Below are positions 8,559 through 40,198 of a DNA stretch of 64,000 nt, piece by piece. Both the position numbers and the translations under genes were made by a program. The DNA is taken from IMG/VR virus record IMGVR_UViG_3300037087_000757; one strand, written 5' to 3'. Within the stretch, counting starts at the first letter, position 1. Each line of letters starts with the position of its first letter. The DNA is from an uncultured virus (IMG/VR IMGVR_UViG_3300037087_000757) (Duplodnaviria; Heunggongvirae; Uroviricota; Caudoviricetes). The notes beneath the pieces were generated by a model, which was not told the DNA's origin, ran no database searches, and saw only the letters and a program-made list of their open reading frames with translations.

Positions 8559-8957
8559 ATGATAAAAAATTTTAATCAATTTCTCAATGAGAAAGAAATG
8601 TGTTGGAGTATTAAAGAAGAACGACCTATAAAAGTAAAAATTAGAAAAGCGACAGATCGAAGCTCAGGAAACTGGTGGTTGATTGGGGATTCCGAAAAAG
8701 AATATATTATAGAACCAGAACCGATGACAATGACTTATGAAACATATTATAAACTTGGTGATAATCTATCACAAGATCAAATTGATTATGGTTTGAGTAA
8801 TGGGAGAACTTATGATGAAAAAACTTTAAAATATCCAAATGATGTACATAAGGGAACATATGATTATTCTAATGGTGAAACATATTTTGTGGCACCAACA
8901 GAAAAAGATCTCGAAAACTGGTTGAATTTTTATAAAGATGTAGTTGTTAGAATTTAA
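8559..8957 (+). CDS. CTS-leader protein (MIKNFNQFLNE)
   Basis: Leader; TTATATATA at 8528-8536. Confidence 0.65.
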   Translation: MIKNFNQFLNEKEMCWSIKEERPIKVKIRKATDRSSGNWWLIGDSEKEYIIEPEPMTMTYETYYKLGDNLSQDQIDYGLSNGRTYDEKTLKYPNDVHKGTYDYSNGETYFVAPTEKDLENWLNFYKDVVVRI

Positions 8958-8968
8958 TATATAGTTTT

Positions 8969-16444: not shown

Positions 16445-16506
16445 TCATACCCTATCAGGTATAATCAAATGGTTATACGAAATTAATGTACCCGAACAGG
16501 TATAGC

Positions 16507-16537
16507 AAAAAAAATTCAGATTTCTCTGAATTTTTTT
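16507..16537. terminator. Bidirectional intrinsic terminator between convergent genes
   Basis: A8-TTCAGA-TTTC-TCTGAA-T7. Confidence 0.75.
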
Positions 16538-16554
16538 ATTTGTAAGATTTTCTA

Positions 16555-17037: not shown

Positions 17038-17090
17038 TTTGGTTTTGGTTTTGGTTAAACAAAAGTATTATCTCTTATTAGAATTGAATA

Positions 17091-17122
17091 CAAAGGTATG
17101 ACAATTCTCCGAAATAAAAAAA
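17091..17122 (-). promoter_or_regulatory. Class I promoter TTTTTTATTTC-N12-TACCTTTG
   Basis: Shares GAATACAAAGGTA and CCGAAATAAAAAA with the 13031 copy at identical spacing. Confidence 0.7.
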
Positions 17123-17126
17123 TAAA

Positions 17127-20682: not shown

Positions 20683-22362
20683 CTATACCCCATTATTGAG
20701 TTTAGGTTTTGGTAATTTAAATTTCTTTACGAAGTCTGGTTTTATATCAGTTCTTTCCCAGAACCACCAATTCCAAAAATCACTCCAATTTTTATTACTT
20801 CTGATTATATCATAATCTATTGTATGATATACCATTATATTTTCGGGTGGAATTGATTCGAGAGTATAAACACCATCTTCATTTACTGAGGCTGGATCAC
20901 GATATAATTGAATATCCTTGGTATTCACTTTCAAAATAACCCAATCTGTTTTATATTCCTTAACACCATAACCAATCATTAGATTTCTTTTATGATTGAA
21001 TAATTGTCGTGCTATTTGAGTAGCACCTTTCGTTGATTTTGATAAATAGATTGCGGTTGGCTCCCAATCACGATGGGTTGGTGGGTTTTGAGGTGTCAGA
21101 CCATGTTTTAATATGTCGTTTACATTTTTCAGTGGTGTTACATGAAAACAAGTGTTAATTTTAACGGGTTTAGATCCATATTTGAAATTCATTGTTTCAA
21201 CCCAAGAAAGTTCACCAAATTCTTCTGGTGTAATTTCTTTTTCGAATAAGTTAAAATTGGTTATCATATGTTCACTATACATGAGTTGTCTTTGTTGTAG
21301 GGTGAGTTTGGGTTTACTTACATTAATATTTCTCTTACCACTATACCATTCGATAGGAATGAATTTATGAATGGAAAATATTATATTACCCATTTTTATT
21401 TCTTTTTCTTTCGATTCAAATTTATCAAAATCGGGGTGGTCTAATTTCCATCCTTTCCCATTATTTCTTTTACTTATTTCGATAATATAATTATTATTCC
21501 ATATTTCGATTTTCAATTTATCTTCCAAATCATTTATAATTCTATCAAATTCATATTTTTTCGGAAAATCCCAAAATGAGATTACTTTATGTTTTGTCCA
21601 TATACGACCTTGATTTTTTATTTTAGAAAATTTAATTCCATAAATATCATCTTCAATTTTATAAAACATATCATTATGATTCCCAGATTTCTCACCTACA
21701 TATAATTCACCATCATAATATACAAAAGGAATAGCATCTGGGGATTCGTGTGTGATTTTTCTCCCATTAGGTAAATTAACAAAATCCCCCGATGATTCGA
21801 ATACTTTTTTTTCACTATACATGAGTTGTCTTTGTTGTAGGGTGAGTTTTGGTTTACTACCTGAGAAATTTCTACTATACCATTCGATAGGTATAAATTT
21901 GACAAAGGTGAAGTCATCTTCACTCCACGATATCACTTGTGTTTCAGGAACTTCTATTTTTTCATAATCGGGATGATTATATTCCCATTCTTTACCTTTT
22001 CCGTATTTAGACTTTTCAATTTCGATTTGATATTCTTGATGCCATATTTCTTTTTTCAATTTATCTTCTAAATCGTCTATAATCTTATTGAATTCATGTT
22101 TACTTGGATAATCCCAAAAGGATATTATTTTACTTTTTGTCCAAATACGACCACGATAGACGGTTTTTTTCCAAATATCAGCATATTCATCTCCTGTTTC
22201 TTCTTCAATTTTATCAATCATATCACCATGAGTAGAGGAATATTCACCAATATAAAAATCTCTCTTATAATAGAGAAAAGGTAAACTATCTGGATCTGAT
22301 TCGTTAATATATTTACCTGATGGTAATTTGATTGTATCTGATTGTGATTCGAATATTCTCAT
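20683..22362 (-). CDS. Three-module protein: two about 180-190 aa repeats plus a C-terminal His-type ART/Tpt1-like domain, each preceded by a CTS-like motif
   Basis: MRIFES / KKVFES / MITNFNLFE; both repeats end KPKLTLQQRQLMYSE; C-domain FHVT..NV..ILKHGL...AIYLS...VILKV...IPPENI. Confidence 0.7.
   Translation of the reverse strand: MRIFESQSDTIKLPSGKYINESDPDSLPFLYYKRDFYIGEYSSTHGDMIDKIEEETGDEYADIWKKTVYRGRIWTKSKIISFWDYPSKHEFNKIIDDLEDKLKKEIWHQEYQIEIEKSKYGKGKEWEYNHPDYEKIEVPETQVISWSEDDFTFVKFIPIEWYSRNFSGSKPKLTLQQRQLMYSEKKVFESSGDFVNLPNGRKITHESPDAIPFVYYDGELYVGEKSGNHNDMFYKIEDDIYGIKFSKIKNQGRIWTKHKVISFWDFPKKYEFDRIINDLEDKLKIEIWNNNYIIEISKRNNGKGWKLDHPDFDKFESKEKEIKMGNIIFSIHKFIPIEWYSGKRNINVSKPKLTLQQRQLMYSEHMITNFNLFEKEITPEEFGELSWVETMNFKYGSKPVKINTCFHVTPLKNVNDILKHGLTPQNPPTHRDWEPTAIYLSKSTKGATQIARQLFNHKRNLMIGYGVKEYKTDWVILKVNTKDIQLYRDPASVNEDGVYTLESIPPENIMVYHTIDYDIIRSNKNWSDFWNWWFWERTDIKPDFVKKFKLPKPKLNNGV
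21271..21849. repeat. 39-bp exact direct repeat, 540 bp apart, at module junctions
   Basis: TTCACTATACATGAGTTGTCTTTGTTGTAGGGTGAGTTT at 21271 and 21811. Confidence 0.95.
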
Positions 22363-22446
22363 ACAAGTATATATTTTTTTTAAGGAATGAAAATTATTTT
22401 TGGGATTCAGATTTTAATATATAAAGAAAAATAATACGGATCAATC

Positions 22447-24332: not shown

Positions 24333-25178
24333 AATAAATTTAAATTTAAACTTATTGTTTTTATTTCTTGTGTAGTTCTTTATATTTCTGATCAATATAA
24401 ACCAATTCCCTACGATGACATTCATCCATGATCTTCTGAATGTCCTTTTGAGAAATTACTTCTCCATTCGCGTCCATAATTACATAACCCTGTGATGGAA
24501 CACCCCAGATGGCTTTTACCAGATATTCTAACTCTCCTAAGGTTTGAATTGTATCTAAGGAAATAACAGAAGAAGCATCATAATCAACATATATCGCACC
24601 TCCTACTTGTTCATATTCAACTTCAACTATTTCATTCTTATCCGAGAAGATCCTGACATATAAATTCTGAGATTCATTAATCCTTTTTACATATCTTTTA
24701 TTGGTCTCATAATATGTTTCCAAACTAAACCCATTATCAATCAAAAACTTTTCTACATTTTTATCTTTTACATCATCATTATTAAATATGACAGAATTAG
24801 CATATCTCATCATAAGTTGCATAAATTTCAGCGGTGCAACATGATAAAATATACTATTAGGATCAGTACAGGGAATTTCTTTATATTCTGGTTGAGAATA
24901 TAAAAACTCTTTTACTTTTTCAATTGTATTTTCCATATTATTTATTTTCTGTTTAAGCACTCTGAACAATATAACTTTTCTAATCCAACATAATCATCAT
25001 CCACAATAAATCCTATGATGTTTTCACATCCATTACTACTACATTTTTGACGATGAACCACATTTGGCTTATCACAATCACACTTCGCTCCCCATAACGC
25101 GGATTCATACTCTTTTCCACAATTTAAACAAATATCTTCCATATCTTCCATATCTTCTTCCTTTCTATGCTTTTTTAA

Positions 25179-25645
25179 TCGAGTTATCTTGACTTCTTTC
25201 CGGTGTTTGACCCGTTACCCTATAAATCCCCATTCACATACAAAATCCACCTGAACACGATTCGAAATAAATCTTTCCCTCTCAATCATCCCGATATTCT
25301 CTATTAAATTATGAATCATAAACCTGTCTGAATCGGTCTTATCCCTTTTATCCATCAGTTGTCTTAATTCCCACTTTAACTGTACTAAATAATTTTCCAT
25401 GTATATTACCCTTTCTTTTTAATGTAATACCACCAAGCTATTAATAATATAATGTTCACTGGATTTAACCAATGATACCATCTCCAACCTTTTTCCTTTT
25501 CCTTTTCCTTTTCCTTTTCCTTTTCCTTTTCCTTTTCCTTTTCTTTTACCTCTGGACACATATCATCAATGTCATCAAAATAAATTTTATCTTTGTTCAT
25601 TATATCTCCGCTTTTTAATCGGTTATTCTGACTTTCTTCCGGGTG
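25179..25645 (-). repeat. Two intergenic copies of CCGGA-N3-AAGTCA motif (25179-25205, 25619-25645)
   Basis: Minus strand CACCGGAAAGAAGTCAAGATAACTCGA and CACCCGGAAGAAAGTCAGAATAACCGA. Confidence 0.75.
25491..25543. repeat. Hexanucleotide microsatellite (TTTTCC)x8.8 encoding (KE)n
   Basis: Direct reading of sequence. Confidence 0.95.
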
Positions 25646-25867
25646 CTGACAACACTACCCCTCTGACCTGTCCATTATCTTGTCATCTTCAATATCAAAA
25701 TAAAAATCCACACTCTCACTCCATTCATCATATACAGTAACCCTATTGTAACTGTTCTCCAACTCAACATCATACTTTATCTTCAATTGAGTCAATGTGT
25801 CTTTCATTAATTGTAAATCCGTCATATAAAATTACTTCACATTCCTTTTTTAATATATACATTCATT

Positions 25868-26353
25868 ATGATAAAAAGTTTTAGAATCTTCGAATCAAAT
25901 AAAGGTCTTGAATCCTTTACTGTCTATCATGGTTCAAATGAAGAACATGATTTTTCAGAAACAGGTAAACATTATCAACTTGGTGGAACTTTCTTTTCAG
26001 AAGATAAAAATGAAGCTAAATCACATGGTAAATTCCTCTATGAAATCCAGCTTAAACCTACTATTGACTTATTTAGTACTATCAATCTATCTGATTGTGA
26101 AAAACTAATAAAACATTGCGAAATCTTATATGATGATTATTTTGATGAAGATGTCGATCCAGATAACTATTTTATAAAAACACCAGAACAACTATCCAAC
26201 CATACCGATAACTGGAACGCTATCGAAAAAACTCCCGGTGTACTGGATTGGTTACATCATTATGACGGTGCTATAATTACTGAAGGTGGTTGTTTAAACA
26301 TTCTTATATTCGACCCCGTAATGGAAAAAATACAATCATATAAACTATTATAA
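25868..26353 (+). CDS. His-type ADP-ribosyltransferase-like (ART-PolyVal-like) protein with CTS-like leader
   Basis: MIKSFRIFES; VYHGS...GTFFSEDKNEA..HG...LYEIQL...YDGAII; TAATATATA at 25851. Confidence 0.7.
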   Translation: MIKSFRIFESNKGLESFTVYHGSNEEHDFSETGKHYQLGGTFFSEDKNEAKSHGKFLYEIQLKPTIDLFSTINLSDCEKLIKHCEILYDDYFDEDVDPDNYFIKTPEQLSNHTDNWNAIEKTPGVLDWLHHYDGAIITEGGCLNILIFDPVMEKIQSYKLL

Positions 26354-26418
26354 GTATAAAATAATCTTCTATTTCTGATAATCCATAAAAATGTGGATTA
26401 ATAGAAATCAATCATTTA

Positions 26419-27867
26419 TTAGATTTTTAATCCATTTACTGAATTCAATTCCGTCACTATTTCCTTTACCCTGCGTAAATACCTCAATCGTTCAATAGTG
26501 GTGAATACTTCGATTAACCTCAATTTGAAATCATTAAAGTTATCATATCCGAATTCCACAGCCATCTGCGTGTTAAACTCCTTCTTCTTATCCCAATCAT
26601 ACCTCTTTATGGTGAAATTCGTTTTCAAATTTAACTTCTTTGTGAAATATTGTACATATAAAGTAGATGTCGGTAAATAATCATTTACATGCTTCCTGAC
26701 ATTACTATTCCCTTCTTCCATTCCCTTTACTAACTTATATACATCATTTATCCTTTTTACCAATTCTTGTTTCTTACCATCCAATATCGTTGTATGTTCT
26801 ACAACATTAAAATCCTTAAATAATTCCTTTAACTCACCCATATGTTTATCTACCATTTTTACCATATCATCATATTTCCCCATAACTTCTTTTAAGGATT
26901 CTACATTATACTCGTAATAACTACGGATCTTCTCACTGATATCAATATCCTGAACTAATTCCTTAATCCCCTTATCTAAAGTGATATACCTATCATATTT
27001 GTTTACATCCTCATCGAAAAATGTCTTTACATCTATCTCACCCTGCTTATTGTACATCTTTACTATTCGACACACATATTCCCCCTTATCCATTATAACT
27101 TCATTTTCATCTCCATGTTTAAAGAATCCTATCTCCCCCTCCAATAAATCAAAATCTATTACTATATCCTTCGGTTTGGCCATAATAGATATAATTACTC
27201 CCAATTCTCCATCTATATACCTATCATTCCTCGATAACCAGTTTAAAGTCGCGGTAAATGTACTGGTTTGTTCACTGAAACGTGCAAAACCCTCAGCTAT
27301 CTTCTTACTATGAGTCCATGAAGATACTTTGTCAAATTCCATATTCAAAATATCCGTTCCTTGCTTTATACAATTAAGAAACTTCTGTCCATACGCCATC
27401 TCCCCTTTGTAAGTTTTCTCCAAGTGATACTTGTTGAATAATAAACCACGATATAAGACAATAGGATTCTTGGGTCTAAGTGACGATATTCGCTTTACTT
27501 CCTCAACGGTTTCTCTACTCAAACTTCTGTGTTTATAAGAATTGACGAAATTTAATACTGTTCTATTCACCTGTTTGTTAAACTCACTAATTAACTTCTT
27601 TATATCATCTATTATCCACTGTTTTTCAATATAATCCTGTAACTTCTTACTTCTTAGGTTCTTAAAATCATAGCTATCCTTGAAAAAATCCATTACTTGT
27701 TGATTGTTGAAAAAATAATATTTTAAGGTATCCACGAAATTTTTATTCAAAGTAGGATTTTCTATCTTACTGAATAATGGTTTCAATACATCTTGCTTCT
27801 TCATATTCTTTATCACATCCTCTTTGGGAAGATTTGAAGCTTCAAATAAAGTAAATCTGGTTATCAT
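26419..27867 (-). CDS. R-S-E type ADP-ribosyltransferase-like protein with CTS-like leader and helical C-terminus
   Basis: MITRFTLFEA; VLYRGL...VSSWTHSKKIAEGFA...DENEVIM; TAATATATA at 27874-27882 (minus). Confidence 0.75.
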   Translation of the reverse strand: MITRFTLFEASNLPKEDVIKNMKKQDVLKPLFSKIENPTLNKNFVDTLKYYFFNNQQVMDFFKDSYDFKNLRSKKLQDYIEKQWIIDDIKKLISEFNKQVNRTVLNFVNSYKHRSLSRETVEEVKRISSLRPKNPIVLYRGLLFNKYHLEKTYKGEMAYGQKFLNCIKQGTDILNMEFDKVSSWTHSKKIAEGFARFSEQTSTFTATLNWLSRNDRYIDGELGVIISIMAKPKDIVIDFDLLEGEIGFFKHGDENEVIMDKGEYVCRIVKMYNKQGEIDVKTFFDEDVNKYDRYITLDKGIKELVQDIDISEKIRSYYEYNVESLKEVMGKYDDMVKMVDKHMGELKELFKDFNVVEHTTILDGKKQELVKRINDVYKLVKGMEEGNSNVRKHVNDYLPTSTLYVQYFTKKLNLKTNFTIKRYDWDKKKEFNTQMAVEFGYDNFNDFKLRLIEVFTTIERLRYLRRVKEIVTELNSVNGLKI

Positions 27868-27932
27868 GATGATTATATATTAAAATTTGTTATAAAAAAT
27901 TAATATATAGAAGAAAAACAATTTCTCTCGTT

Positions 27933-28289
27933 ATGAAAAATTTAAAACCATATTCTAAATTTGAATATATCACCGAAGAAACAACAACAAAACCAAAAAA
28001 GTTGACAATAAAAATAGAACAACCTCTTACTACCGATGCTCAAAAAGATGTTCTTGATTTAGTCCAAGAAAGAGTGGACGCTTTTAATAAGGGTAAATTC
28101 ACTGGTGATGTGGAAAAATATTTCGAACACGATTGGAGAGAATTCGTTATTTTTCCTTTACATACTTCAAGTGGATATCTTGATAAGAATAAAATTGGAT
28201 ATGGTAAAGGGGGACACCACGTATGGGTAGTTTCCACAGTAGATCAAAAGAGATTCTTATTCATTTACGAAGATCCAAGATTCGATTAA
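27933..28289 (+). CDS. CTS-leader protein (MKNLKPYSKFEYITE)
   Basis: Leader; TAATATATA at 27901. Confidence 0.6.
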   Translation: MKNLKPYSKFEYITEETTTKPKKLTIKIEQPLTTDAQKDVLDLVQERVDAFNKGKFTGDVEKYFEHDWREFVIFPLHTSSGYLDKNKIGYGKGGHHVWVVSTVDQKRFLFIYEDPRFD

Positions 28290-28339
28290 TATACATATAT
28301 CATATAACTCATTATAAATCAATAACATATAATCAATAA

Positions 28340-28600
28340 TTTCCTGCAGAAAAAATAGCTTGCCGCGCTGCCCAAAAAAATTTTGAGCGCTAAAAAAAGG
28401 TAGGTTCCGCGGCGCCCCAAAAAAAATTTAGCTATAAAAAAGTGGGGAAAATTTCTGCCCCAAAAAAATTTTCCTCAGAAAAAATTCCTGCCGCGCCTGC
28501 AAAAATTTCTCGGTCATGGGCTATGAGCCGCGCCACCCCCTATGGGGGCTGCGCAGCGGCAGCGGCGCTGGATCATGAGCCCGGACCGGAGGGTCATGGT
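28340..28600. other. GC-rich non-coding island: about 43-bp degenerate A-tract repeats plus branched hairpin; candidate origin or packaging/terminus site
   Basis: GC blocks alternating with A5-A8 tracts; inverted repeat 28509-28591; located at the skew and gene-orientation switch. Confidence 0.6.
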
Positions 28601-28679
28601 TAGTCGAATTTAGATCCCTTGAGGATTGGATATAAAGCTCTTGACCATTTGGAAATACGAAATGAAAATTTAATATATA

Positions 28680-30017
28680 ATGCCTATGTATTATTCAACT
28701 CCAGTAATGAATGCTATAGAGAATACGCCGGGGGCTCGTGTCCTTGACGGTGGGAGAATAGAGTTACAGGTATCGAGATATCAGAAGCCAGAACAGGGTG
28801 GGAGTCCTTCAGTTCGTACAGGTGTATTCTATTTACCTGAACTTAAATCCCCGTATGGTAAACATTATAAATCTTCTTATGACAATCCTAACTCCGCTTA
28901 TGGTGGTAGTCAATATATAACTGGTACGATTGTATTGAAGAAACCATATACATTACAAGCAGGTACAGGTGGGTTAGGTCCACAGAAAGCCTTTATAGAG
29001 TTATATGGTAAAGATATGTATAAGGAACTTGAATCAGATATATTCGAGATGGTAGTAAATAGAATGCCTTGGGGTAAGAAGGTGAACCATATGGTAATGG
29101 AAGAGTGGATACAAGAGTTCATGGAGAAGTGGGAAGGTGATCCAGATTTGGCGTATGCTATAGCTGAACATAGTAACGAGGGTAATCGTATGAGATACGC
29201 GTTACAAGAACATATCATAGCACATAAGATCAGAGATAAAGGATTTGATAGTGTACTATCTTATAGTAAACATAAGGGAGAGTTCCACCTGTCAGAAGTG
29301 TTTGACCTAAGACAGATGGAGTATCCATACGAGAGTGGATTCCTAATAGAACAACACCATAACAAATTATATAACAATATCATAACAACATTCAATAGCT
29401 TTATATCTTATATGAATGAATCATATATAAAGCCGAGTGGAGGACTTATATATTTGACACAGGATATAACTTATGCGAATGCATATGCTATGGGTATGAA
29501 GAGTACAGCACATAAAGGGGTAGAACATATAAGGGATGGGGTTATATTTGTTATATGGTTAGACGAGAACATAGCTCATTGGGGAGGGGATATATGGGAG
29601 AACTGTTACAGGGCGGAAGTCGTAGAGGATTTAAAAGAATATAAGCGATCTGGTAGGTTATCTACTTTACTATCTATTATGTTTGAATCAGCGGGAATAG
29701 GATCGGATATAAATCAGTCGAATATAAAGTACTTGAATAATATGATAAAAGATCCTATTATATTACTTCAATGTATATCACCTAATGATTGGTCGGGTAT
29801 ACAAGATGGGGGGATGGGATATAGTGAAGTATGTGTAAAGAGTGTAGAGTGGAATCAGATTATAGAGATTCGTGTATATAAGGACTATGAATTGGTGGAT
29901 ACTATACAAGGTGGTATGGTGGATATAGATTTGATGGAAATTGAACCAGAGGATTACATGAATATATTTTATCATGGATCACCTTTACATTTATGGCAGT
30001 CTAAGTTATTACGATAG
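28680..30017 (+). CDS. Two-domain ART-like protein with internal CTS-like motif; second domain apparently circularly permuted
   Basis: Domain 1 GVFYL...YG...KGFDSV; linker NIITTFNSFISYMNE; domain 2 YIKP..LIYLTQDITYANAYA...SEVCV with C-terminal IFYHGS; TAATATATA at 28671. Confidence 0.6.
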   Translation: MPMYYSTPVMNAIENTPGARVLDGGRIELQVSRYQKPEQGGSPSVRTGVFYLPELKSPYGKHYKSSYDNPNSAYGGSQYITGTIVLKKPYTLQAGTGGLGPQKAFIELYGKDMYKELESDIFEMVVNRMPWGKKVNHMVMEEWIQEFMEKWEGDPDLAYAIAEHSNEGNRMRYALQEHIIAHKIRDKGFDSVLSYSKHKGEFHLSEVFDLRQMEYPYESGFLIEQHHNKLYNNIITTFNSFISYMNESYIKPSGGLIYLTQDITYANAYAMGMKSTAHKGVEHIRDGVIFVIWLDENIAHWGGDIWENCYRAEVVEDLKEYKRSGRLSTLLSIMFESAGIGSDINQSNIKYLNNMIKDPIILLQCISPNDWSGIQDGGMGYSEVCVKSVEWNQIIEIRVYKDYELVDTIQGGMVDIDLMEIEPEDYMNIFYHGSPLHLWQSKLLR

Positions 30018-30456
30018 GAGTGTTTATTCTCATCTTCACTTTAATTATATAACCATCTGCAATATAATCATTCCAGAGTTCATACCATTCATAATCACTA
30101 TTAATGATAGTTAGGTTTAGTTCTTTAGCTATTTGAGTCATTCTTTCGGACAGGAACATTTGTAATACCTTTTCTTTACTTCTACCTTTATATTGTCGTT
30201 GGTGATAGATCGCTTGCCAACATTCCTTGACCCAACCTTCCCAATATATTAAATGGTTATTACCTATATTTTGTACAAAGGTTTGCCATTCATATCCATC
30301 TCCAGTGTTGTCTAATATTTCATAGGGTTCAGGTCTCCAATCGTTATGATCTGGATCTGTTTTAAGATGATCAAGGTATTCTTGAATGATAGCGATGCGT
30401 TGTTCATCAGCTATATTGATTTCCGTGTAATCTTCAAATAATGTAAACATATGCAT
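30001..30456 (-). CDS. CTS-leader protein (MHMFTLFED)
   Basis: Leader; (TA)n run with TAATATATA directly upstream. Confidence 0.6.
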   Translation of the reverse strand: MHMFTLFEDYTEINIADEQRIAIIQEYLDHLKTDPDHNDWRPEPYEILDNTGDGYEWQTFVQNIGNNHLIYWEGWVKECWQAIYHQRQYKGRSKEKVLQMFLSERMTQIAKELNLTIINSDYEWYELWNDYIADGYIIKVKMRINTPIVIT

Positions 30457-30496
30457 ATATATATATATTAAACTTTTGTTGTATTATTTCATATAA

Positions 30497-30642
30497 GGAG
30501 CTGCTAATGGTGATGTTTTAGGCTTAAAGAGGTGAACAATCTATTAGCTGGTATCCTCGATGAATGGGGCACCCCAGAACTTAAAGTGATTTTTAACAAA
30601 TATATAGATTGTTTTTATCACTCATAGTTCTGGGGGTTTTTT
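30497..30642 (+). ncRNA. Candidate structured non-coding RNA
   Basis: Class II promoter at 30470-30496 immediately upstream; stem GCTAATGG/CTATTAGC, long stem CCCCAGAACT/AGTTCTGGGG with inner AGTGAT/ATCACT, then a T-tract; no ORF in the track. Confidence 0.5.
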
Positions 30643-30773
30643 ATAATAATAAAACAAACAGAAAAATAACTTATATAACGTCATTGAAAAACATTCGATA
30701 TAAAACATCTGATTGTTTTAAACGAGAGGATGTATCAAAATGAATTTAAAGTGTCTTAAAACGATTAAAAGCT

Positions 30774-32166
30774 ATGGATTTTAATAAAATAATGGAGAAC
30801 ATGAACTTATCTAAGATGATGCCTCCACAAAGGGAGATAGAAAATTACCTTATATTGGTTAAGGATAATTGGTCAGAGTTCAATAAAGAGGCCAGTGAAC
30901 TTATCAAGGTGGGTTATGAACCTATCGGAATGTTGGTGATTAATAATGGTTATTATGTAAAGGAATTTATAAAATATAAAGCATTATGAAAGAATGGATT
31001 GTATTATTAGTTACTTGTGTAATAGTTGCTTTTCTTATGAAAGTATTATTTCCAGCTTTACCTTTATTGGTGTTTATAATTACTGGCCTTATAATTGGAT
31101 TTTTTTGGAATAGTTTATGGACCGCAATATTTAAAAGAAATAGATAAAATGGAAATAAAGGATAAGTTGATAATATATTGATATCCTTTCTCAACAAAGA
31201 AAAGAGTTATTAAGTCAAAAAAAAGGATTGGGATTTTTTCAAAGGATCTCTTTCCCTAAATATACTGATTGGGTAATGACTGATGAAGTTAATCACTATA
31301 CTCAACAAGAAGTCATTATGAGCCACTATGATCCATTTTTCCGTGAACCAATTGGAGATATAAAGAACATAACTAAACAAGTTTCATTGAGAATGAAACT
31401 GAAGGATGGAAAAATCGAAATACACGAAATTGAATTATAAATAATATAAACAAACAAAATAAAACAAATTTAAAACTATGAAAAAACTTTATGCAATTTT
31501 TATGATGATTATGATAGTATTCGTAATCGGATTTACAACAACAAGTTGTAAAAAAACTGATACTGGATGTAGTGGTATGGGAACACTATCTCTATCAAAT
31601 CAATCAAATAGTACTACTCAACAAATTATGATTGATGGTGCAAGTTATGGTAAACTTTATCCCGGCCAATCAAAGGACATCTCATTGGCAGCTGGAACTC
31701 ATACTTGGCAATTAGTTGGACTTTCTGGTGGTAATGGTTGTACACAAGCTTCTGTAATTATCGTTGAATGCCAATCAACAGGATTCTATTGTGATGGAAA
31801 GAAACAGGGAAGTAAATAACTATTATAATGGAAGATCAGAAAGATAATACTACTAAACAGTATGTTGTCCTCGAACATCTTACAGGTGTAGATAAAGGAT
31901 ATAGATTCTATACAAATAATTCTGGAGAAATGGATCATACCATTTCCCACGATGAACATGGTATGGAAATCGTAGCATATAAAGTAGTTGGATATGTTGA
32001 TACCGATCAACAAGCTCAAGATCTGATTCATGAAGCTCACTCCTTTGAGGAAGGACTGCTTCACCACATTTCCCAATATCCACCTGAACTCTTAGCTATG
32101 ATGATGAAGGATACTTTTTATGATGATGATGAAAATCCTAATGAAAATGAGAATCCAGTAAAATAA
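30774..32166 (+). other. Small genes: 30774..30989, 53-aa membrane protein 30986..31147, frameshifted gene 31149..31440, lipoprotein 31478..31819, 31828..32166
   Basis: ORF track and manual translation; class II promoter 30652-30678. Confidence 0.65.
31478..31819 (+). CDS. Lipoprotein with small beta-sandwich (PEGA-like) domain
   Basis: Signal ending TTSC-KK; GTLSLSN...IMIDG..YG.L.PG..K.ISL.AGTH. Confidence 0.7.
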   Translation: MKKLYAIFMMIMIVFVIGFTTTSCKKTDTGCSGMGTLSLSNQSNSTTQQIMIDGASYGKLYPGQSKDISLAAGTHTWQLVGLSGGNGCTQASVIIVECQSTGFYCDGKKQGSK

Positions 32167-32176
32167 ATTGTGTGAT

Positions 32177-32311
32177 ATGTTATTCCTTATTCTTATAATA
32201 CTCTTTTTCTTTATATTTCTTGATGATTAATAATATATTATGCTGATAATATTCATATTATTCCTGATGATATTTTCTGGTCTTTTTGTTTTTACATTTC
32301 TTGATGACTAA
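32177..32311 (+). CDS. Two tandem hydrophobic micropeptides ending FLDD (32177..32230, 32240..32311)
   Basis: MLFLILIILFFFIFLDD* and MLIIFILFLMIFSGLFVFTFLDD*. Confidence 0.5.
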
Positions 32312-32524
32312 CACTATTTGATATGTGCACTGTAATTATATTATCCGTGTTTTGTATAGTATTTTGATGATTTTGGTGATTTGTTCTAAATAACTTATAT
32401 AATAGATTGTATATAATCTTGTTAAGTGTATAAATAAGAAATCAGGAGAAAGAAATAGCTCGGGGAAATTTTGATATAATGATATTATATTATATCTTAT
32501 TTATAATCTTTTCTAAATAACTGT

Positions 32525-32917
32525 TTATTCTTGTGTTAAGATTCTGATACGATCCTCTAATTCGAGAAGAGCCGCGCCTTCATCCATCATGTGAATATTC
32601 CACTTACCAGACCAAGAGTTCATTACACCTTTTATCTCTGGATCTTGATTGGCTAACTTGGGATCATTAAACCTCATGAAGATAGAATATACTTCACTCT
32701 TGTCATTGTGTAAACTAATTGATAGTTCCCCGTATTTTGTCTCTACCTTTACAGTTGACATCATTCCACCAGCAGTTGGAGGAAAAGCATATCCAGTTCC
32801 ACCTAATTTATTTAACTTCTCTTTACCAAACGCTTTTTCTAAAATCTCATATACCTTCTGATTGAAGGCGAACATATCTTTTAATTTTTCACTGATGAAT
32901 TGTTCAAATGTTTTCAT
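32525..32917 (-). CDS. Putative internal head protein with near-canonical T4-type CTS
   Basis: MKTFEQFISE vs T4 IPII/IPIII MKTYQEFIAE; TTATATATA at 32939-32947 (minus). Confidence 0.7.
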   Translation of the reverse strand: MKTFEQFISEKLKDMFAFNQKVYEILEKAFGKEKLNKLGGTGYAFPPTAGGMMSTVKVETKYGELSISLHNDKSEVYSIFMRFNDPKLANQDPEIKGVMNSWSGKWNIHMMDEGAALLELEDRIRILTQE

Positions 32918-32965
32918 AAGATTGAATTCTTTTTTCCTTATATATAAATTATTTTAATTGGATAT

Positions 32966-33217
32966 TTAAATATCCCTTTGAAAATCTTTTTCATATTTTT
33001 TCTCTACTATAACTTCAAATTCCTCGAAATATAATTTACACTCACCTGCTGGTTTCTTGAACCTGAGAAAACCATATTTATATAAATATGGAAATTTTTT
33101 CTTATTACATATAATGCGTGTTCCAATCGGAAACTCAATTCGAGCGATCGGGTCTTGGGGCTGCTGTGTTACCTGAATCCAAATACAACTTACTTTTCTA
33201 CTTCTTTCTTTACTCAT
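32966..33217 (-). CDS. Hypothetical protein
   Basis: ORF with TAATATATA at 33226-33234 (minus). Confidence 0.55.
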   Translation of the reverse strand: MSKERSRKVSCIWIQVTQQPQDPIARIEFPIGTRIICNKKKFPYLYKYGFLRFKKPAGECKLYFEEFEVIVEKKYEKDFQRDI

Positions 33218-33477
33218 AATAAATGTATATATTATTATATTTTGGGTCTCAGCGTGGGATACATATCTGATGCTTTATATATGAAGATAAAATGAATATG
33301 ATAGGGAGATGCTTTATATTTTTTCTGCAGAATATATACAATATTTCACACATTGATTAGAGTATGGTCGTTTTTTAAGCTATCAATAAAAAAGAATAAA
33401 TCTTTATAATATAAAGCAGATGAACAAGATCTGTGACTTTTACGTTTTTTACCATATTTAAAGTTATATATAAGGGT

Positions 33478-34377
33478 ATGTTTAAGATACAAGCGAAGAG
33501 TTTTCAGTTAAAGAGTTTAGGAACGAATACCACACCATCTGGTTCGACAAGTTTTTTTATGGTAGGGGGTACTGAAGTTATATCGGGTGGGTATCATTAT
33601 CATAAATTTTTCACGAGTGATACGGTAACCGCGTTTAATGGTCCGGGTAACATAGATATTTATATAATTGGTGGAGGTGGAGGAGGAGGATGTGGGGATG
33701 CGACTTCTGGAGCTGGTTTTGCTTCTGGAGGAGGAGGAGGAGCTGGTGAAGTTTATCATGACGCGGCTTATAGTGTATCGAGTGGAGCTAAGACAGTAAC
33801 TATTGGTGGGGGTGGTAAAGGTAGTAATGGTAGTGGATCGGTAGGTGGTCATGGTACTGGAAGTGGATTTGATGTATTGAATGTTTTTGGTGGAGGAGGT
33901 GGTGGATCTGGTGTTGAGGGTGGTGGTAAAGGGCCGGGAGATACAGGTGGATCTGGTGGAGGAGGTGGAGCTAGTGATACAGGTGGTGGATCTGGTGGTG
34001 GAACGGGTAGTGTAGGTGGATTAGTAAATGTTGGTGGTGATGGTAATGGTAGTGGTGGTCTTAATAGTGGAGGTGGAGGTGGTGGTGGAGCTGGTAATGT
34101 TGGAGCAACTGGTAATTCTGGTGATGTTGGTAAGGGTGGAGATAGTGTATCAATTGTTTGGGATACTACTTATTATTTTGGTGGAGGTGGAGAGGGTAAT
34201 GGTCAACATACGAGTACAAATAATAGTGGGGGTAATGGAGGTCTTTATAATGGTTTTGGAGGTGATGCTGTAGGAAACACTGGAGGTGGTGGAGGTGGAA
34301 CGACACAGAAACCCGGAGCTGCGGTTGCTGGTGGTAATGGAGCTGATGGATTTGTGATATTGAGGTATCTTGTGTAG
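33478..34377 (+). CDS. Glycine-rich phage structural/fibre-type protein (start revised to 33478)
   Basis: YHYHKF.S, IIGGGGGGG, repeated GGGGG blocks, terminal GGNGADGFVILRY; TTATATATA at 33464-33472. Confidence 0.75.
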   Translation: MFKIQAKSFQLKSLGTNTTPSGSTSFFMVGGTEVISGGYHYHKFFTSDTVTAFNGPGNIDIYIIGGGGGGGCGDATSGAGFASGGGGGAGEVYHDAAYSVSSGAKTVTIGGGGKGSNGSGSVGGHGTGSGFDVLNVFGGGGGGSGVEGGGKGPGDTGGSGGGGGASDTGGGSGGGTGSVGGLVNVGGDGNGSGGLNSGGGGGGGAGNVGATGNSGDVGKGGDSVSIVWDTTYYFGGGGEGNGQHTSTNNSGGNGGLYNGFGGDAVGNTGGGGGGTTQKPGAAVAGGNGADGFVILRYLV

Positions 34378-34417
34378 ATAGGAATTAATATAAAAATATA
34401 TAAAGCATTAATTATTT

Positions 34418-34786
34418 ATGAAACCACATTATTTCGCGGAGATAAACTTTGAGGATATAGTTCAGAGGGTTATAGTAGTAGAGAGTATAGATAAAGTTCG
34501 ATTACTTTATGGGGATGGTAATAGTAGGTGGGTAGAGGTTCATTATGATAAGGTTAAGAATTATCCATCTAAGGGTTATATTTATATATCATTACTTAAT
34601 GATTTTTATTCACCGCAACCATATGAGGGATGGATATTGGATATGGATACTTTACAATGGAATCCAAAACCATTAGATAAGAATGTTTATATACTTCCAA
34701 ATGGTATAATACCACGAATGATTGTAACCGCTGATAATAAGATATATTCTTGGAATAATGAGAGTGTTAGTTGGGTAGAGATATAA
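34418..34786 (+). CDS. Small partner protein of the type commonly found after glycine-rich phage proteins
   Basis: HYFAEI...VQRVIVV...KNYP..GY.Y...DFYSPQPYEGW.LD...WNE. Confidence 0.6.
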   Translation: MKPHYFAEINFEDIVQRVIVVESIDKVRLLYGDGNSRWVEVHYDKVKNYPSKGYIYISLLNDFYSPQPYEGWILDMDTLQWNPKPLDKNVYILPNGIIPRMIVTADNKIYSWNNESVSWVEI

Positions 34787-34798
34787 ATAATAATGGTT

Positions 34799-35134
34799 TT
34801 ATATGTCAAATGGTATAATAAATTCTTTGGATGGTTCGAGTAGAGCTAATTCTCTCCAATTTTTTATTTGTTCAGTCATGGTGGTTATTTCTCGCCATCC
34901 AGATTGAGCGAAGTTTACATATCCGTTTGGATTTAATTTAGCTTCGGTTGTTCCTTTATCCAATTGACACCATAAACAAATATCATTTTCTGAGTATGCA
35001 CGGATTTTGACATCAGTGATTATTTCACCAAAGTAATCATTGGATGATTTGAAAATTTTATTTATTATAGTTAAGAATTCATCTTTTTTCATAATAATAA
35101 TTATTTTATGTAATATGTAATATGTAATGTACAA
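34799..35134 (-). CDS. Hypothetical protein (start uncertain)
   Basis: ORF track; more likely start is MKKDEFL. Confidence 0.55.
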   Translation of the reverse strand: MYITYYILHKIIIIMKKDEFLTIINKIFKSSNDYFGEIITDVKIRAYSENDICLWCQLDKGTTEAKLNPNGYVNFAQSGWREITTMTEQIKNWRELALLEPSKEFIIPFDI

Positions 35135-35165
35135 AACTTTTTGGAATAAAAAAAATATAAAGCAT

Positions 35166-35846
35166 ATGCGTTATCATATTATAAGGGATTTAGATAGTTT
35201 GAATGAATTTGTATCGAGTTTACCTGAGTTATATTTTGGTGAGAAATATTTTATAAGGTTAATCACGCGTTCTAAGTATGTAGATAGTGTAAAAACGGAT
35301 AAGGATTTACGATCAATACTTGTGGATAGGGATGGTATAGTGAATGGTATTCAGCAGTTGGAGTGTGATATTGGTTTATATGATGGTTTGGGGGATGATG
35401 AGATAGGGATTTATATGAGTCCTAATCCGAGGGATATGGAGTTAGTAGTTAGGAATGTTTTGTTAAGGTTTAGTAAAATTATAGTTGGTGGTTATAGGGG
35501 TGAGGATGTTAACAATGTTATAACGCAGGTAATCAGGGGTAGTTGTAAGCGTCAGCGTCAGATGTATTATGATTTGGATTTTGATATAAAGGGTGGGTGT
35601 TCAGTTGATTTGATAGTCGATCAGGTAGGTAGGTTAATTAACAGGGAGTGTTTGCGTGTTTTACATACGAAGATGGGTATACATTTTATAGTTGAGTTGG
35701 GTAGGGTAGATAATATAAGTTATCCGAATTGGTTAGGGGATATAAGTAAGTTGTCATGTTTTGACAGTCAGTGTATGTCGGATAATAATATACCGATTGT
35801 AGGGTGTAGTCAGTTTGGGTTTGTACCGTATTTTACGATATTATAG
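35166..35846 (+). CDS. Possible archaeo-eukaryotic primase (prim-pol)-like fold protein (start revised to 35166)
   Basis: IYMSPNPR, YYDLDFD (DxD), LHTKMGIHFIV (T..G.H); class II promoter at 35134-35160. Confidence 0.45.
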   Translation: MRYHIIRDLDSLNEFVSSLPELYFGEKYFIRLITRSKYVDSVKTDKDLRSILVDRDGIVNGIQQLECDIGLYDGLGDDEIGIYMSPNPRDMELVVRNVLLRFSKIIVGGYRGEDVNNVITQVIRGSCKRQRQMYYDLDFDIKGGCSVDLIVDQVGRLINRECLRVLHTKMGIHFIVELGRVDNISYPNWLGDISKLSCFDSQCMSDNNIPIVGCSQFGFVPYFTIL

Positions 35847-35880
35847 AGGGGAGAAAGGTGGGATTAGATGGATTAGTTGT

Positions 35881-35964
35881 CACCCGGATTTAAGTCAGAA
35901 TATCGGAATTGGGTGGGGAAGCCGCGGATGCTGGGGTCACCCGGAACTAAGTCAAAAAATCGGA
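35881..35964 (+). repeat. Two tandem copies of CCGGA-N3-AAGTCA motif (35881-35907, 35938-35964)
   Basis: CACCCGGATTTAAGTCAGAATATCGGA and CACCCGGAACTAAGTCAAAAAATCGGA. Confidence 0.8.
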
Positions 35965-35980
35965 GTTTTTGAAGGTAAGT

Positions 35981-37507
35981 CTATTGAAGATTGTTTTTAG
36001 ATTCTATCTTAGTAATTATAGCGAGTACATCATGGGTAACGATTATATCTTTACGGTTGGGTAGTTTATTGATACAATCTATACATATTTTATCACCTTT
36101 ATAATCTTGAATACTGATATTAAACAGGTAGGCGTCGTAATACACCGAAACTGGTTTCTGACAGTAGTTACATTTAACATGGGTTAGGTTGAACCACCAA
36201 GTTTTAAATTTAAATTTTAATTTATAATTCATCCACATATACTATAATTATATTATATTATTTTATTGTGTCACCTACTTTATATTTTCTCACCAGTTCA
36301 TAGGTAAAATTACAAGAGGGGAATTGGATTAATTTTCCAGTATTATCTTTAACGATGAATACAGGATCTGCTATAATATCACCTTGTTGGGATGTAAAAA
36401 CGACAGCTGGTTTTTTCAGGTTGTTGAATTTTTCTAATCCTGATTCATATTCATTACAGGAAATCATCATGAACATAAGTAAGAATAGGGTTAAGATAAT
36501 TTTTTTCATATATTGATAATTTTATTTTATTTGGTCAATAAGATAATTAAAGATACTATGTTTACCATTTACCCCTATATCCAAAAATAGAATAAATATC
36601 GGTATGATGGTAACGATGCACCAGAATAGGATAAAAAAGGCTACAAAACTTCTCATATTATAAATAATGTAAGTGTTATTACTATAGCTACACCACTGAA
36701 TACAGCAGTCCAGAATTTCCAATCACCTTCTTCTAATCCAATGAGAAGATGTTTAGCTAATGCTTTATCGTAATTTTTCATGTTTATTAAGTTATTTTTT
36801 TAAGATAATCCATTATAGATTCGATAATTTGTTTATCATTTATTCTATGGTCAGGATGTCTTTCATTCCAAGATATTTGAAAATCTCTTACTTTCAATAT
36901 TTTTTGAATATCATTTTTTATATTAGTTATTAACAGTTTGTAGGTCGAGGTTATAATTCACTTTAACTGTATTTTGTGGTACATGGAGTCTATATGTTCC
37001 ATCTCTATATGTACCCGTTGAAATATGTTCGAACAGTACCCAATTTTTTATTTTACTTATGTCTAATACTTCATAATAGTATTCAACCAAATAAGGTTCA
37101 GTATTTTCATCTTCATATATAATGGTTTCGTAGTCATTAGTTTTGTAAAGTTTTTTACCACCTTCTTCTGCTTTATACATAATGTATTGGATATTATTTG
37201 AAGATCCGAATCCACCTATACCGAGGATAAATGATCCGCTTATTTGTTTATCATTTTGTAGGTTCAGTGAATATATCTTTTCTTTCAGGGGTGTTTTACT
37301 AACAAGTCGTGGTTCAAGGGTACTGTTTAATATAGCGGTTGTGATTGCCCAAAAAATCAGGGATATTAATATCCCGTATGTAAGCCATCCGCTAGCGACA
37401 TCTTCGATGGAGTCCCATACTGATTGATTAGAATTATTTCTTCTGATAAGAAAAGCTATTACCAATGAGATGATAAACAGTCCGATAAAAATGAATAGTG
37501 TGTACAT
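35981..37507 (-). other. Small genes including lipoprotein 36258..36509 and membrane protein 36923..37507
   Basis: MISC lipobox; class I promoter motif at 37532-37563 supports start at 37507. Confidence 0.7.
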
Positions 37508-39676
37508 AATTTTGTTTTTTATGATTTTGAATAAATATAAGTAATTGTTCTGGAATAAAAAAATATATTCAAACAAAGGGGTGTATTTTTTATATAAATA
37601 GAGTGTGAATTGTTTATCAATAGATATAAAAAAAGATTAAGGATGGAATTAGAAGAGATGAAAAAATTAGGTTATTCTATTGAATTTCCTATGTTGGAGA
37701 AGATAGAGGATTTAATATATTACGAAGGACCGCTTTTATCTCTATTTAAGAGGAAAGATGAAGATATATTCTATTTCTATTATTGGATAGATATGGATAA
37801 GACTTCTAATAGGTGGTTAATTTTTGAAGTATCTCAGGATGATATAACTAATTTTAAGGAGAAAAATGACACCATCATTTTAAAGGATTTGATTTTAAAA
37901 TCGAATAATTTATGGATTGATGATATTTCTGATGGTTTGGATGATTTAAATGATTTAAATCATGATTTTAGATATGTAGAAAAGAAAGAAATTATTAATT
38001 ATTTAAAATATAAGGTATGAAAAAGGTCAAGTTAATTAAGTTATTTGAAGCTGAAAATCCTCGTCATCCTAATAATATTCCAGAGGGTTTTGTTAAAGAG
38101 GGATATCCAATAAATGAACCAACGGTAGGTGAATCATTTCTTATGAATACTGATGATGGGGATGGATGGCACACTTCGATTGTTCAGGAAATATTTGAGG
38201 ATGGTACATTCAAGACTTTTAATTCTATTTATAAAATTGTAAGAGAATGAGATACATAGCTAAAATAGATAGAAGAATAAAAGCGAGCATGAATGGTAAT
38301 TGGATACTTCACTCATATGGTACTACAAAAAAGAGACCAAGAATTAAAAAAATAATTCGAACTGATACTAAAATCATTCTCGAAACAACATAAAAACAAT
38401 GAGTCCAGAGAAAAGAGGGATTAAAGTAGAACATTTTCCTATGTGGATACAATTGTCTAATCCACATTTAAATGATATTTTAAATCAAGATGGATACTTA
38501 TGTCTTAATAATTTGACAAAACAAGTTTATGTAATGCCATACAAAAGGAATAAAATAAATCAATAGAATATGGTAAAACCGATTAAACCGAATGAGGTTG
38601 TTAGTATTAAACTGGATAATATTCCAGATGAATTGATTGAAGCGATTAATGAATTAATCGTTAAGAAGTGGGACGGATATTCCGCTGTAGTACTTCAAGA
38701 AGATATTGAAAAGCTATTTCTTAAAAAATATCCGAATGTAAAGGAAGCTAAAAAGAAGATGTACGAAGAACACTGGATGGATTTCGAGGATATTTTTCGT
38801 AAAGAGGGTTGGTCTGTTAAGTTTGATAAGCCCGGCTACGATGAATCTTATGATGCTTATTTCGAATTCAAGCCAAAAAAGAATAAAGAAGGTTTCGAAG
38901 CAAAGGACTAATTATTTTTTAATTTTTAGAGTGTAGTTATTTTTTTATTTCGGATATTTTACTTATATTCATTTCAATTGTAAAATGACTTTATATGAAA
39001 ACACAAGAAGTAATAAAGTGGGAATCTGGTGCAGATTATTCAACAAAAACAATTGAACTATTAACTAAGAAGTTAACGGAATTGATTGGAGAGGGATATA
39101 CTATTGATAATGTTATACCAACAGAATATTACGGGAGTAATATCGCGTGTATAACCAGAGCACTTATCATTGTAAGTATATAGAAAGGGAAATAGTTATG
39201 ATGATATTTAGTGGATGTGTATTATTATTTCTCATTATAGTGATTATATTTTTTGGATCAAAAGGTTTGAGATAAATATGAAGCCTATATTCATGTTCAA
39301 AATTTATTAAAAGATAAAACGAATACTACTTATTATATCAATGAATATAAACAAATAGAAGATTAAAAATGATAACAAGAGAACAAATAGAAAACGCCCT
39401 TACTGATGATAGGGATAGTGTTTTCAAACAAGACGAGGATCATGGAATGAAGGTGGTCACACTTTTAAGAAATAAAATACCGTATTCCGAATGTCATAGT
39501 ATACTTGTCGGGGCATCACACGATCAAATATATCTACCTGATATTGGTATGATTATTAAGTATATTGATGAGAGTGATTTGTCAGTTCTTGTGGATTGTA
39601 ATTCGTTTATTGACGAAGATAATGATTGTCTTTCATTATATGTTTAATATGTTTAATTTTAGTAAGAAGTAAGTGT

Positions 39677-40198
39677 ATGAATCAATCGATTGATAACGAA
39701 AGTCAAATATTTTTTTACGAACAGAATTATTATCCATTTTCCAATTTTTCATCTTTTCAAGTGAATTGGAAAGGGTATCAATGGATGACCTCTGAACATG
39801 CTTATCATTCGGAAAAGTTTATTAATCATCCTGAGATCATAGAATTATTAAAACAAACGACATCAGCACATGATGCGTTTAAAATCGCTATGAAGAATAA
39901 GGATAAGTATCTTGAAAATTGGGATGATATTAAACTTGGCATCATGGAACAAATACTTTTAGCTAAAGTGGAACAACATCCATATGTCAGGAAGAAATTA
40001 TTTGATAGTGGAGATAAAGAATTAATTGAAAATTCATGGAGAGATTCATATTGGGGATGGGGTGAAAACAAAGATGGTGAAAATCATCTGGGTAAATTGT
40101 GGATGAAAATCAGAACAGATTTAAGATCAGATATGAGATTTAATACAAAAAATGAATTTCCTCCCGTTTCAATTTATCATGATTTTAATCAAGTATAA
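39677..40198 (+). CDS. NADAR (YbiA-like) family protein (start revised to 39677)
   Basis: FSNF, TSEHAYHSEKF, WDDIKL.IM..IL.AK..QHP, LIENS..DSYWG, GENHLGKLWMKIR. Confidence 0.9.
   Translation: MNQSIDNESQIFFYEQNYYPFSNFSSFQVNWKGYQWMTSEHAYHSEKFINHPEIIELLKQTTSAHDAFKIAMKNKDKYLENWDDIKLGIMEQILLAKVEQHPYVRKKLFDSGDKELIENSWRDSYWGWGENKDGENHLGKLWMKIRTDLRSDMRFNTKNEFPPVSIYHDFNQV

Follow-up and report, generated by a model that had tools for sequence, protein, structure and literature searches.

Two outward-facing pairs of a rare bipartite intergenic motif in a divergent stretch of uncultured phage DNA

Introduction

The promoters read by T7-type single-subunit RNA polymerases and the middle and late promoters of T4 are short (~20 to 35 bp), linear, strand-polar spacer motifs that lie tens of nucleotides (nt) before starts, occur in few copies per region, sometimes in tandem, and consist of a conserved binding part followed by an AT-rich patch. 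Virus-specific intergenic repeats usually prove to be promoters. Polar sites of another kind, those of the Tus-Ter and RTP-Ter systems, are asymmetric, ~23 to 30 bp long, and stand in two opposed groups flanking a region, and in phage lambda the operator sets OL and OR face outward on either side of a control region. The elements termed PeSLs in T4-like phages join an early promoter of the host sigma-70 type (-35/N17/-10) to a stem-loop, as described in PMC4122927, and halovirus HF2 carries intergenic repeats of 29 and 58 bp, of which nine of nine tested drove a reporter, according to the account in PMC8707807. Here we describe a motif with the core CCGGA-N3-AAGTCA in a 64,000-nt stretch of DNA ("the window") from an uncultured member of the Caudoviricetes (IMG/VR record IMGVR_UViG_3300037087_000757). 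An exact-match scan of both strands found four copies, which we call c1 to c4:

25190-25203, minus strand: core of c1, within an extended copy of 35 nt at 25177-25211
25629-25642, minus strand: core of c2, within an extended copy of 34 nt at 25617-25650
35884-35897, plus strand: core of c3, within an extended copy of 32 nt at 35879-35910
35941-35954, plus strand: core of c4, within an extended copy of 32 nt at 35936-35967

The motif resembles the T7-type and T4 promoters in every respect listed above. It differs from them in that searches of the 64 kb and of distant relatives turned up no cognate polymerase, sigma factor, or activator (150 of the 154 open reading frames [ORFs] of a crude ORF map were scanned against Pfam, and 22 of these were also scanned against PHROGs) and that c3 and c4 have no gene to drive; its copies (66 to 84% identical) are also less alike than is usual for T7-type promoters. 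With its left pair on the minus strand and its right pair on the plus strand, it has the geometry of Ter sites, but no terminator-protein family was recognized among the scanned ORFs, the copies are tied tightly to gene boundaries, and the bracketed region more likely holds an origin-like spacer than a terminus. Like PeSLs, it would be a repeated regulatory element placed among small ORFs that evolve fast, in a part of the genome that is plastic, one that could end one unit and start the next and might serve recombination; unlike PeSLs as they are presented in PMC4122927, its copies have neither a host-type promoter nor a stem-loop. As regards location, c1 and c2 flank ORFs of 56 to 69 amino acids, and variant junctions lie in the region (e.g., 25135, 31150, 32387, and 35054). 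The HF2 repeats are likewise virus specific, intergenic, and of similar length, and promoter activity was shown for them; however, in the account given in PMC8707807 they are AT-rich archaeal promoters whose position is conserved among relatives, whereas the present motif is GC richer than its surroundings and was found in no relative.

Results and Discussion

The motif is real and statistically solid. Dinucleotide-preserving shuffles of the window (n = 100) contained a mean of 0.04 exact core matches, and none of the 100 reached the four observed. When up to two mismatches were allowed, the window yielded 14 matches, of which 4 are exact and 10 have two mismatches, while single-mismatch matches are absent; we take these 10 as background because chance gives 8.9 matches for the whole search. 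Since there is no one-mismatch copy and the two-mismatch matches are at the chance level, the family is closed, and half-site scans of the other spacers in the window revealed no weaker or degenerate members. All four copies lie in spacers, and the noncoding share of the window is 10.3% on the crude ORF map. An earlier note on this DNA had reported four copies between genes, the left pair reading leftward and the right pair rightward, and none elsewhere. The scan recovered the core at all four places, with the same number, opposed polarity, and spacer positions; "none elsewhere" holds within these 64 kb, but no such claim is supported beyond them.

The conserved unit extends beyond the core. 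With each copy aligned on its own strand, it reads GTCA-N1-4-CCGGA-N3-AAGTCA-RAATAW-C(S)GA-TT and measures 32 to 35 bp, longer than the 27 bp given in the earlier note, which had the shared core right. Pairwise identity is 66 to 84% between extended copies compared to 30 to 56% between their 35-nt flanks, with the exception of the downstream flanks of c1 and c2, which are 62% identical and have AAAAAGC in common. The motif is bipartite. Its two invariant blocks are spaced by about one helical turn and enclose an unconstrained 3-bp center that is different in each of the four copies (AAG, AGA, TTT, and ACT); beyond them come an AT-rich patch (RAATAW) and an end that contains C/G. It has neither dyad symmetry nor a regular direct repeat, and the upstream GTCA stands at a variable distance. 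Relative to c2, c1 has a one-base deletion and a one-base insertion; because these indels give different reading registers, the motif is conserved as nucleic acid and not as peptide. In its makeup, it looks like a protein recognition site on duplex DNA and not like a coding repeat.

We then placed the copies relative to the genes around them, which include the following:

24942-25151, minus strand: 69-amino-acid, double-Zn-ribbon-like gene downstream of c1
25406-25600, minus strand: 64-amino-acid gene, downstream of c2, whose product has an (EK)n repeat and ends in a hydrophobic tail
25655-25825, minus strand: 56-amino-acid ORF whose TAG stop precedes c2; first leftward gene after a divergent spacer
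35127-35846, plus strand: 239-amino-acid ORF with no assigned function, whose end precedes c3 and c4
35981-37576, minus strand: four-gene block faced by c3 and c4

Copy c1 begins 3 nt past the TAA of ORF 25215-25400 and ends 25 nt short of the ATG of ORF 24942-25151, while c2 begins 4 nt past the TAG of ORF 25655-25825 and ends 16 nt short of the ATG of ORF 25406-25600 (ORF 25215-25400 starts 5 nt after the latter). Both are co-oriented with the small genes downstream of them. On the right, c3 begins 32 nt past the TAG of ORF 35127-35846 and 2 nt past the third in-frame TAG, and c4 stands in tandem with it, at 57 bp from start to start, and ends 13 nt from the stop codon of the convergent ORF 35981-36238 (minus strand). 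The window is mostly minus strand from ~9.4 to 25.8 kb and plus strand from 37.6 to 61 kb, with mixed orientation between; the left pair lies at the inner border of the minus-strand block and the right pair near the inner border of the plus-strand block. This geometry, with a same-strand stop before each copy and the next ATG 25 and 16 nt beyond c1 and c2, is what points to a role in transcription.

The motif is also distinct from the other promoter-like signals in the window. A TAATATATA box, of the form (T)TTAATATATA, occurs 11 times; 9 of the 11 occurrences are intergenic, and all 9 lie 1 to 24 nt upstream of a co-oriented ATG:

Intergenic (T)TTAATATATA boxes: 4065-4073, 8955-8963, 22415-22423, 25851-25859, 27874-27882 (minus strand), 27901-27909, 28671-28679, 30462-30470 (minus strand), and 33226-33234 (minus strand)

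Six of the nine fall in the mixed-orientation central region (25.8 to 33.3 kb), and one TTAATATATA box is carried by the divergent spacer 25826-25867. The box is probably the main gene-proximal promoter of this phage, used with very short leaders. In the three spacers that hold the motif, no TAATATATA box, TAnnTTTG box, or sigma-70-type site was found on the motif strand. Bacteroidota promoters have the consensus -33 TTTG/-7 TAnnTTTG; none of the 13 intergenic TAnnTTTG matches lies in a motif spacer, and no site from a sigma-70 scan coincides with a copy on its strand. The GC contents of the motif spacers are 0.38, 0.41, and 0.48, whereas 0.38 is reached by just one of the 36 remaining spacers of ≥40 nt, that at 28290-28679, and for this reason we regard the motif as a separate signal class. 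The window holds at least three such classes: host-like boxes, the TTAATATATA gene-proximal box, and the rare CCGGA/AAGTCA motif.

We tentatively favor, at somewhat less than even odds, the view that the four copies are a minor, phage-specific promoter class firing outward. The promoter class would be distinct from both the TTAATATATA box and the host-type (Bacteroidota-like) promoters, and a DNA-binding part of the phage transcription machinery would recognize the sequence of the copies in duplex DNA. Placed at the inner border of each gene block, leftward and rightward, the copies would fire outward: c2 would drive ORFs 25406-25600 and 25215-25400; c1 would drive the Zn-ribbon gene and the genes behind it, including that for an AAA ATPase; and the c3/c4 tandem would start either a rightward transcript antisense to the four minus-strand genes or a short RNA. 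We favor promoters because c1 and c2 are co-oriented with genes that have no other promoter box and would give them leaders of 16 to 25 nt and because the virus-specific intergenic repeats of HF2 set a precedent; the tandem duplication and the placement at the inner borders of divergent blocks also fit. Protein binding to the motif, a transcription start there, and the kind of factor that would recognize it are what we infer from these features. The earlier note, which had proposed a polar protein-binding site, had set its proposal against an ordinary promoter element; the latter is now the most likely reading, though not a proven one. A phage-specific transcription signal, the likeliest kind, is already well known.

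Several observations weigh against this view. The spacer that holds c3 and c4 is a convergent one: a plus-strand gene ends directly before them, and ahead of them are 1.6 kb of credible minus-strand genes (the block of four), with no credible plus-strand ORF over that distance. That is a classical position for a terminator and not for a promoter. A stop codon on the same strand closely precedes the copies (by 3, 4, and 32 nt, with c4 in tandem). No RNA polymerase, including one of the single-subunit (T7) type, and no sigma factor or DNA-binding regulator was recognizable among the 150 scanned ORFs, and PF00562 is absent from the records of five distant relatives (PF00940 had no match in those records either, but control genomes also gave none). 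The window is probably part of a much larger genome. Finally, the motif was found in none of the relatives that were fetched, so that conservation lends no support.

The placement of c3 and c4 is better accounted for if the copies are hairpin-free, sequence-specific, one-way terminators or insulators, or composite terminator-promoters, that stop transcripts leaving the central 10-kb region. This is the main rival explanation, although we consider it doubtful; it pictures the central genes as individually promoted and two sites acting in series on each side. Every copy follows closely on a same-strand stop codon, c3 and c4 stand in the convergent spacer that ends the plus-strand unit 33478-35846 and would shield the four minus-strand genes from antisense transcription, and an insulator would fit both the outward polarity and the presence of two copies per flank. 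Hairpin terminators are also few in this part of the window: a scan of 24800-36400 for intrinsic terminators found 2, compared to 5.4 in shuffles, and neither is at a motif spacer. The same scan, however, found no site at any copy, and no hairpin or consistent T-run follows the motif. Terminators of the hairpin and T-run type exist elsewhere in the window (16445-16554 and 60158-60260, identified by eye), so termination here need not use the motif, and most other convergent junctions are only 0 to 21 nt long and do without it. Known sequence-specific terminators depend on a dedicated polymerase or factor, but neither was recognizable among the scanned ORFs. Moreover, terminators at c1 and c2, 16 to 25 nt before the ATGs, would leave ORFs 25406-25600, 25215-25400, and 24942-25151 onward without a recognizable promoter. 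If the motif is a promoter or an insulator class, it would mark the borders of a differently timed gene block and offer a handle for finding the phage factor that reads it.

It seems unlikely that the motif is an operator, the binding site of a phage repressor or activator that modulates neighboring promoters. A bipartite site with a variable 3-bp center, present in few copies at the borders of a region, would suit such a protein; c3 and c4 in tandem could bind it cooperatively, and the arrangement is loosely like that of OL and OR in lambda. But the missing symmetry and the variable GTCA distance do not favor an operator, no helix-turn-helix protein or other regulator was recognizable nearby, and the motif spacers have no separate promoter-like box for it to modulate.

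Other readings place the signal in protein or RNA. Among the 26 same-strand spacers of 30 to 150 nt, only those of c1 and c2 are in frame and stop free, which raised the idea that they are translated or bypassed inserts joining the flanking small ORFs by read-through or ribosome hopping. Searched with HMMER against 1.84 billion representatives, however, the c1 read-through product gave 52 matches, none of which spans both halves: 51 match the Zn-ribbon half only (query residues 78 to 152), mostly from residues 1 to 7 of free-standing proteins of 61 to 100 amino acids, and the remaining match is the upstream ORF itself. The c2 read-through product had no match. The registers differ between copies, and GC-rich spacers have fewer stop triplets by composition; we reject the insert reading as having next to no chance of being right, and the open frames are best put down to GC-rich composition and chance.

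To look for a conserved RNA structure, we folded each copy with 46 to 81 nt of context, and the c3/c4 spacer on both strands, and compared the results with shuffles. With context of 46 to 144 nt over all foldings, the z-scores ranged from -0.99 to +0.49. Because no copy folds better than shuffles and the predicted helices are not common to the copies, the element is a linear motif with no conserved fold. Rfam gave no match over the whole window at the gathering threshold or over 24900-36300 at an E value of ≤1. An RNA-level role (a processing site, a translational operator, or a solitary CRISPR-repeat mimic), or else ends of a mobile or invertible segment bracketing 10.8 kb, is in our estimate improbable. 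For the genes downstream of c1 and c2, the motif would form part of the 5' leader, and the 57-bp spacing of c3 and c4 resembles a repeat-spacer-repeat unit, but the absence of a shared fold argues against function as RNA. A CRISPR repeat or mimic can be dismissed, as the copies are only 66 to 84% alike with a variable center; in 185,579 species genomes, the c2-to-c4 pattern occurred as three singletons in unrelated phyla, with no array. Mobile-segment ends would fit the inverted arrangement with two sites per end and the somewhat GC-richer region between them. However, the 150 scanned ORFs include no transposase, integrase, resolvase, or recombinase at an E value of ≤0.01, the motif has no dyad symmetry, and no target duplication was seen by eye at the outermost copies; an apparent duplication was discounted, as the shared T/A run belongs to the conserved tail of c1 and c2. 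The TTAATATATA boxes lie both inside and outside the bracketed region, which marks that region as native, and among the joints listed in the contigs of four sequencing runs, where cover is thin, no strand-changing joint falls at the sites.

Under a last group of explanations, the copies would be polar DNA-protein barriers acting apart from transcription: a Ter-like fork trap, a helicase-loading site, or an injection or packaging pause around a central origin-like region. We consider these quite improbable. The opposed groups, in a geometry shared with Ter traps, flank the cumulative GC-skew minimum near 28 kb and the noncoding stretch 28290-28679, in which phased A-tracts and GC-rich segments occur. 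On the other hand, no replication, terminator-protein, terminase, primosome, packaging, or recombination gene was recognizable among 150 of the 154 ORFs; the point where the skew turns is also where gene orientation changes; and barrier sites would not need such tight placement at stop and start codons. The earlier note had placed the motif near the edges of a strongly skewed zone; the skew mostly reflects gene orientation, because coding strands are G rich throughout the window, but the two groups do flank the skew minimum. Its idea of a polar, sequence-specific protein site agrees with a linear, nonpalindromic, bipartite, strand-oriented, spacer-confined motif, but for primosome or helicase loading, fork pausing, and an injection stop, we found no positive evidence. 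The more specific proposal that the opposed pairs are polar barriers (a fork trap or an injection or packaging pause around 28290-28679) or one-way insulators walling off a 10-kb island is given little chance; genes in such an island would be ADP-ribosyltransferase-like and probably anti-defense. We know of no barrier or hairpin-free insulator element of this kind in phages of this type, and literature searches brought up none. A replication or injection barrier, if that is what the motif is, would be a new mechanism for phages.

The spacer 28290-28679 is of interest in itself. It is a 390-nt noncoding stretch with a GC content of 0.42 at the cumulative GC-skew minimum and a strand switch. Within it, four to five CCCCAAAAAAATTT-like A-tracts are in phase, and after them comes a GC-rich segment prone to form hairpins. 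Rfam gave no match within the stretch, which folds with a z-score of -1.6; candidate roles for it are an origin and a noncoding RNA.

The motif itself is new: it was found nowhere else, and literature searches gave only analogues. Among distant relatives, LR756500, LR756508, and LR756511 contain no matches in 1.54 Mb, relative L122 has none with ≤1 mismatch in 21 kb, and relatives G001 to G003 have no exact match and three one-mismatch matches in 279 kb; the scan of relatives that the earlier note had called for thus gives no support from conservation. In IMG/VR, a loose pattern (14 specified bases) hit at least 118 stretches, which we ascribe to chance because all 80 listed are single matches. 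A stricter pattern found one viral singleton, on an unrelated contig of 252 kb in coding DNA that is GC richer, and three genome singletons, which is the chance level. An exact 43-mer from the c3 region is absent from IMG/VR. Nothing was found by megablast of 24 to 37 kb against named phages, by tblastn with the Gly-rich ORF, or by searching IMG/VR for related loci with the 482- and 445-amino-acid proteins. One alignment-based search of genome contigs (A2) found nothing, another alignment (A4) returned 53 pattern stretches, none of them a relative, and the Zn-ribbon alignment (A3) was too loose to use. As far as the searched collections reach, the motif is private to this lineage.

Seventeen DNA sequencing runs contain the stretch or part of it, 16 of them from peat metagenomes, and no RNA run is listed among them. 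Contigs from four DNA runs are identical, low-cover fragments with no variation at the motif. Contigs from several of the peat runs match up to 25135, 31150, 32387, and 35054 and then diverge, with the same loose ends in two to three runs; beyond the junction at 25135, the Zn-ribbon gene starts differently and is preceded by other sequence. These junctions suggest co-occurring mosaic variants or paralogous copies.

The window is a highly divergent, AT-rich contig that probably comes from a huge phage. Its GC content is 29%, it has no tRNA genes, and it is tightly packed with ~154 ORFs, most of them small and many with 4-nt overlaps. Only about a dozen of the 150 scanned ORFs match a Pfam family above the cutoff, namely, SprT-like, 2H phosphoesterase, ZIP transporter, papain-like protease, Macro, NADAR, AAA, glycine-rich domain, and PALP families. 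The 2H phosphoesterase ORF has an additional, weaker Acb1 match below the cutoff, and ART-PolyVal gave weak matches only. Domains of the takeover or counterdefense type lie at 4796-5632, 6412-7311, 14977-15492, 25868-26353, 28680-30017, and 39677-40198 (SprT-like, 2H phosphoesterase/Acb1-like, Macro, two weak ART-PolyVal-like, and NADAR), a set typical of host takeover or counterdefense. Two further genes have assigned families:

10285-11001: ZIP transporter
15701-16444: papain-like protease

The AAA protein has its best tblastn matches in three uncultured phage records of 462 to 595 kb. The 482-amino-acid ORF adjoining c2 (26419-27867) has distant homologues (28 to 33% identity) on contigs of 78 to 330 kb that CheckV rates as 19 to 32% complete, and further homologues of the protein have 58, 38, and 43% identity, the first of these being encoded on a 13-kb contig. 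Huge uncultured phages remain almost wholly "dark," and a cis-regulatory code is one of few things about them that sequence by itself reveals. As things stand, this motif is well supported and has an ordinary most-likely function, and it would be of high interest only if the barrier or insulator reading were true.

Regarding the genes next to the copies, the 69-amino-acid, eight-Cys Zn-ribbon protein downstream of c1 belongs to a sizeable family of free-standing small proteins with no assigned function (51 representative clusters at an E value of ≤0.001), and among the Atlas clusters that have a taxon on record, the nearest to it are viral, which is a lead only. In ORF 25406-25600 (minus strand), about eleven tandem CCTTTT hexamers (25486-25545) encode the (EK)n run, and the C terminus is hydrophobic. 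The block 35981-37576 encodes an 85-amino-acid Zn-ribbon protein, an 83-amino-acid lipoprotein-like protein, a 66-amino-acid membrane protein, and a 217-amino-acid protein that matches phrog_8077 (E = 5.5e-10). The Zn-ribbon protein of this block is unrelated to the one next to the left sites, and searches of PDB sequences with three neighboring proteins gave nothing below an E value of 0.5.

Most genes in the window have no Shine-Dalgarno sequence, and their leaders are A rich. A spacer element, TTTTTTTATTTCGG...TAccTTTGTATTC, occurs at 13026-13068 and 17086-17128 (both minus strand; 84% identical); it resembles Bacteroidota-type -33/-7 promoters and hints at a Bacteroidota host. The TAccTTTG boxes in two spacers, which we take to be like Bacteroidota promoters, together with the A-rich leaders devoid of Shine-Dalgarno sequences, suggest a host of the Bacteroidota type.

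TAG stops are clustered in 25655-36238, where they end, for example, ORFs 25655-25825, 28680-30017, 30001-30456, 33478-34377, 35127-35846, and 35981-36238, and three in-frame TAGs lie within 12 codons after ORF 35127-35846; reading TAG as Gln gave no convincing longer genes, and over the window neither alternative code (TGA as Trp or TAG as Gln) brought a convincing gain. Several four-base palindromes are strongly depleted (observed/expected, ACGT 7/175, CTAG 7/175, TGCA 43/175, and GCGC 9/32), which suggests restriction avoidance; CCGG is not avoided (26 compared to 32 expected). Within the 559-amino-acid ORF 20683-22362 (minus strand), positions 21271-22293 form an internal tandem duplication of ~540 to 552 bp, the copies of which are 72 to 87% identical.

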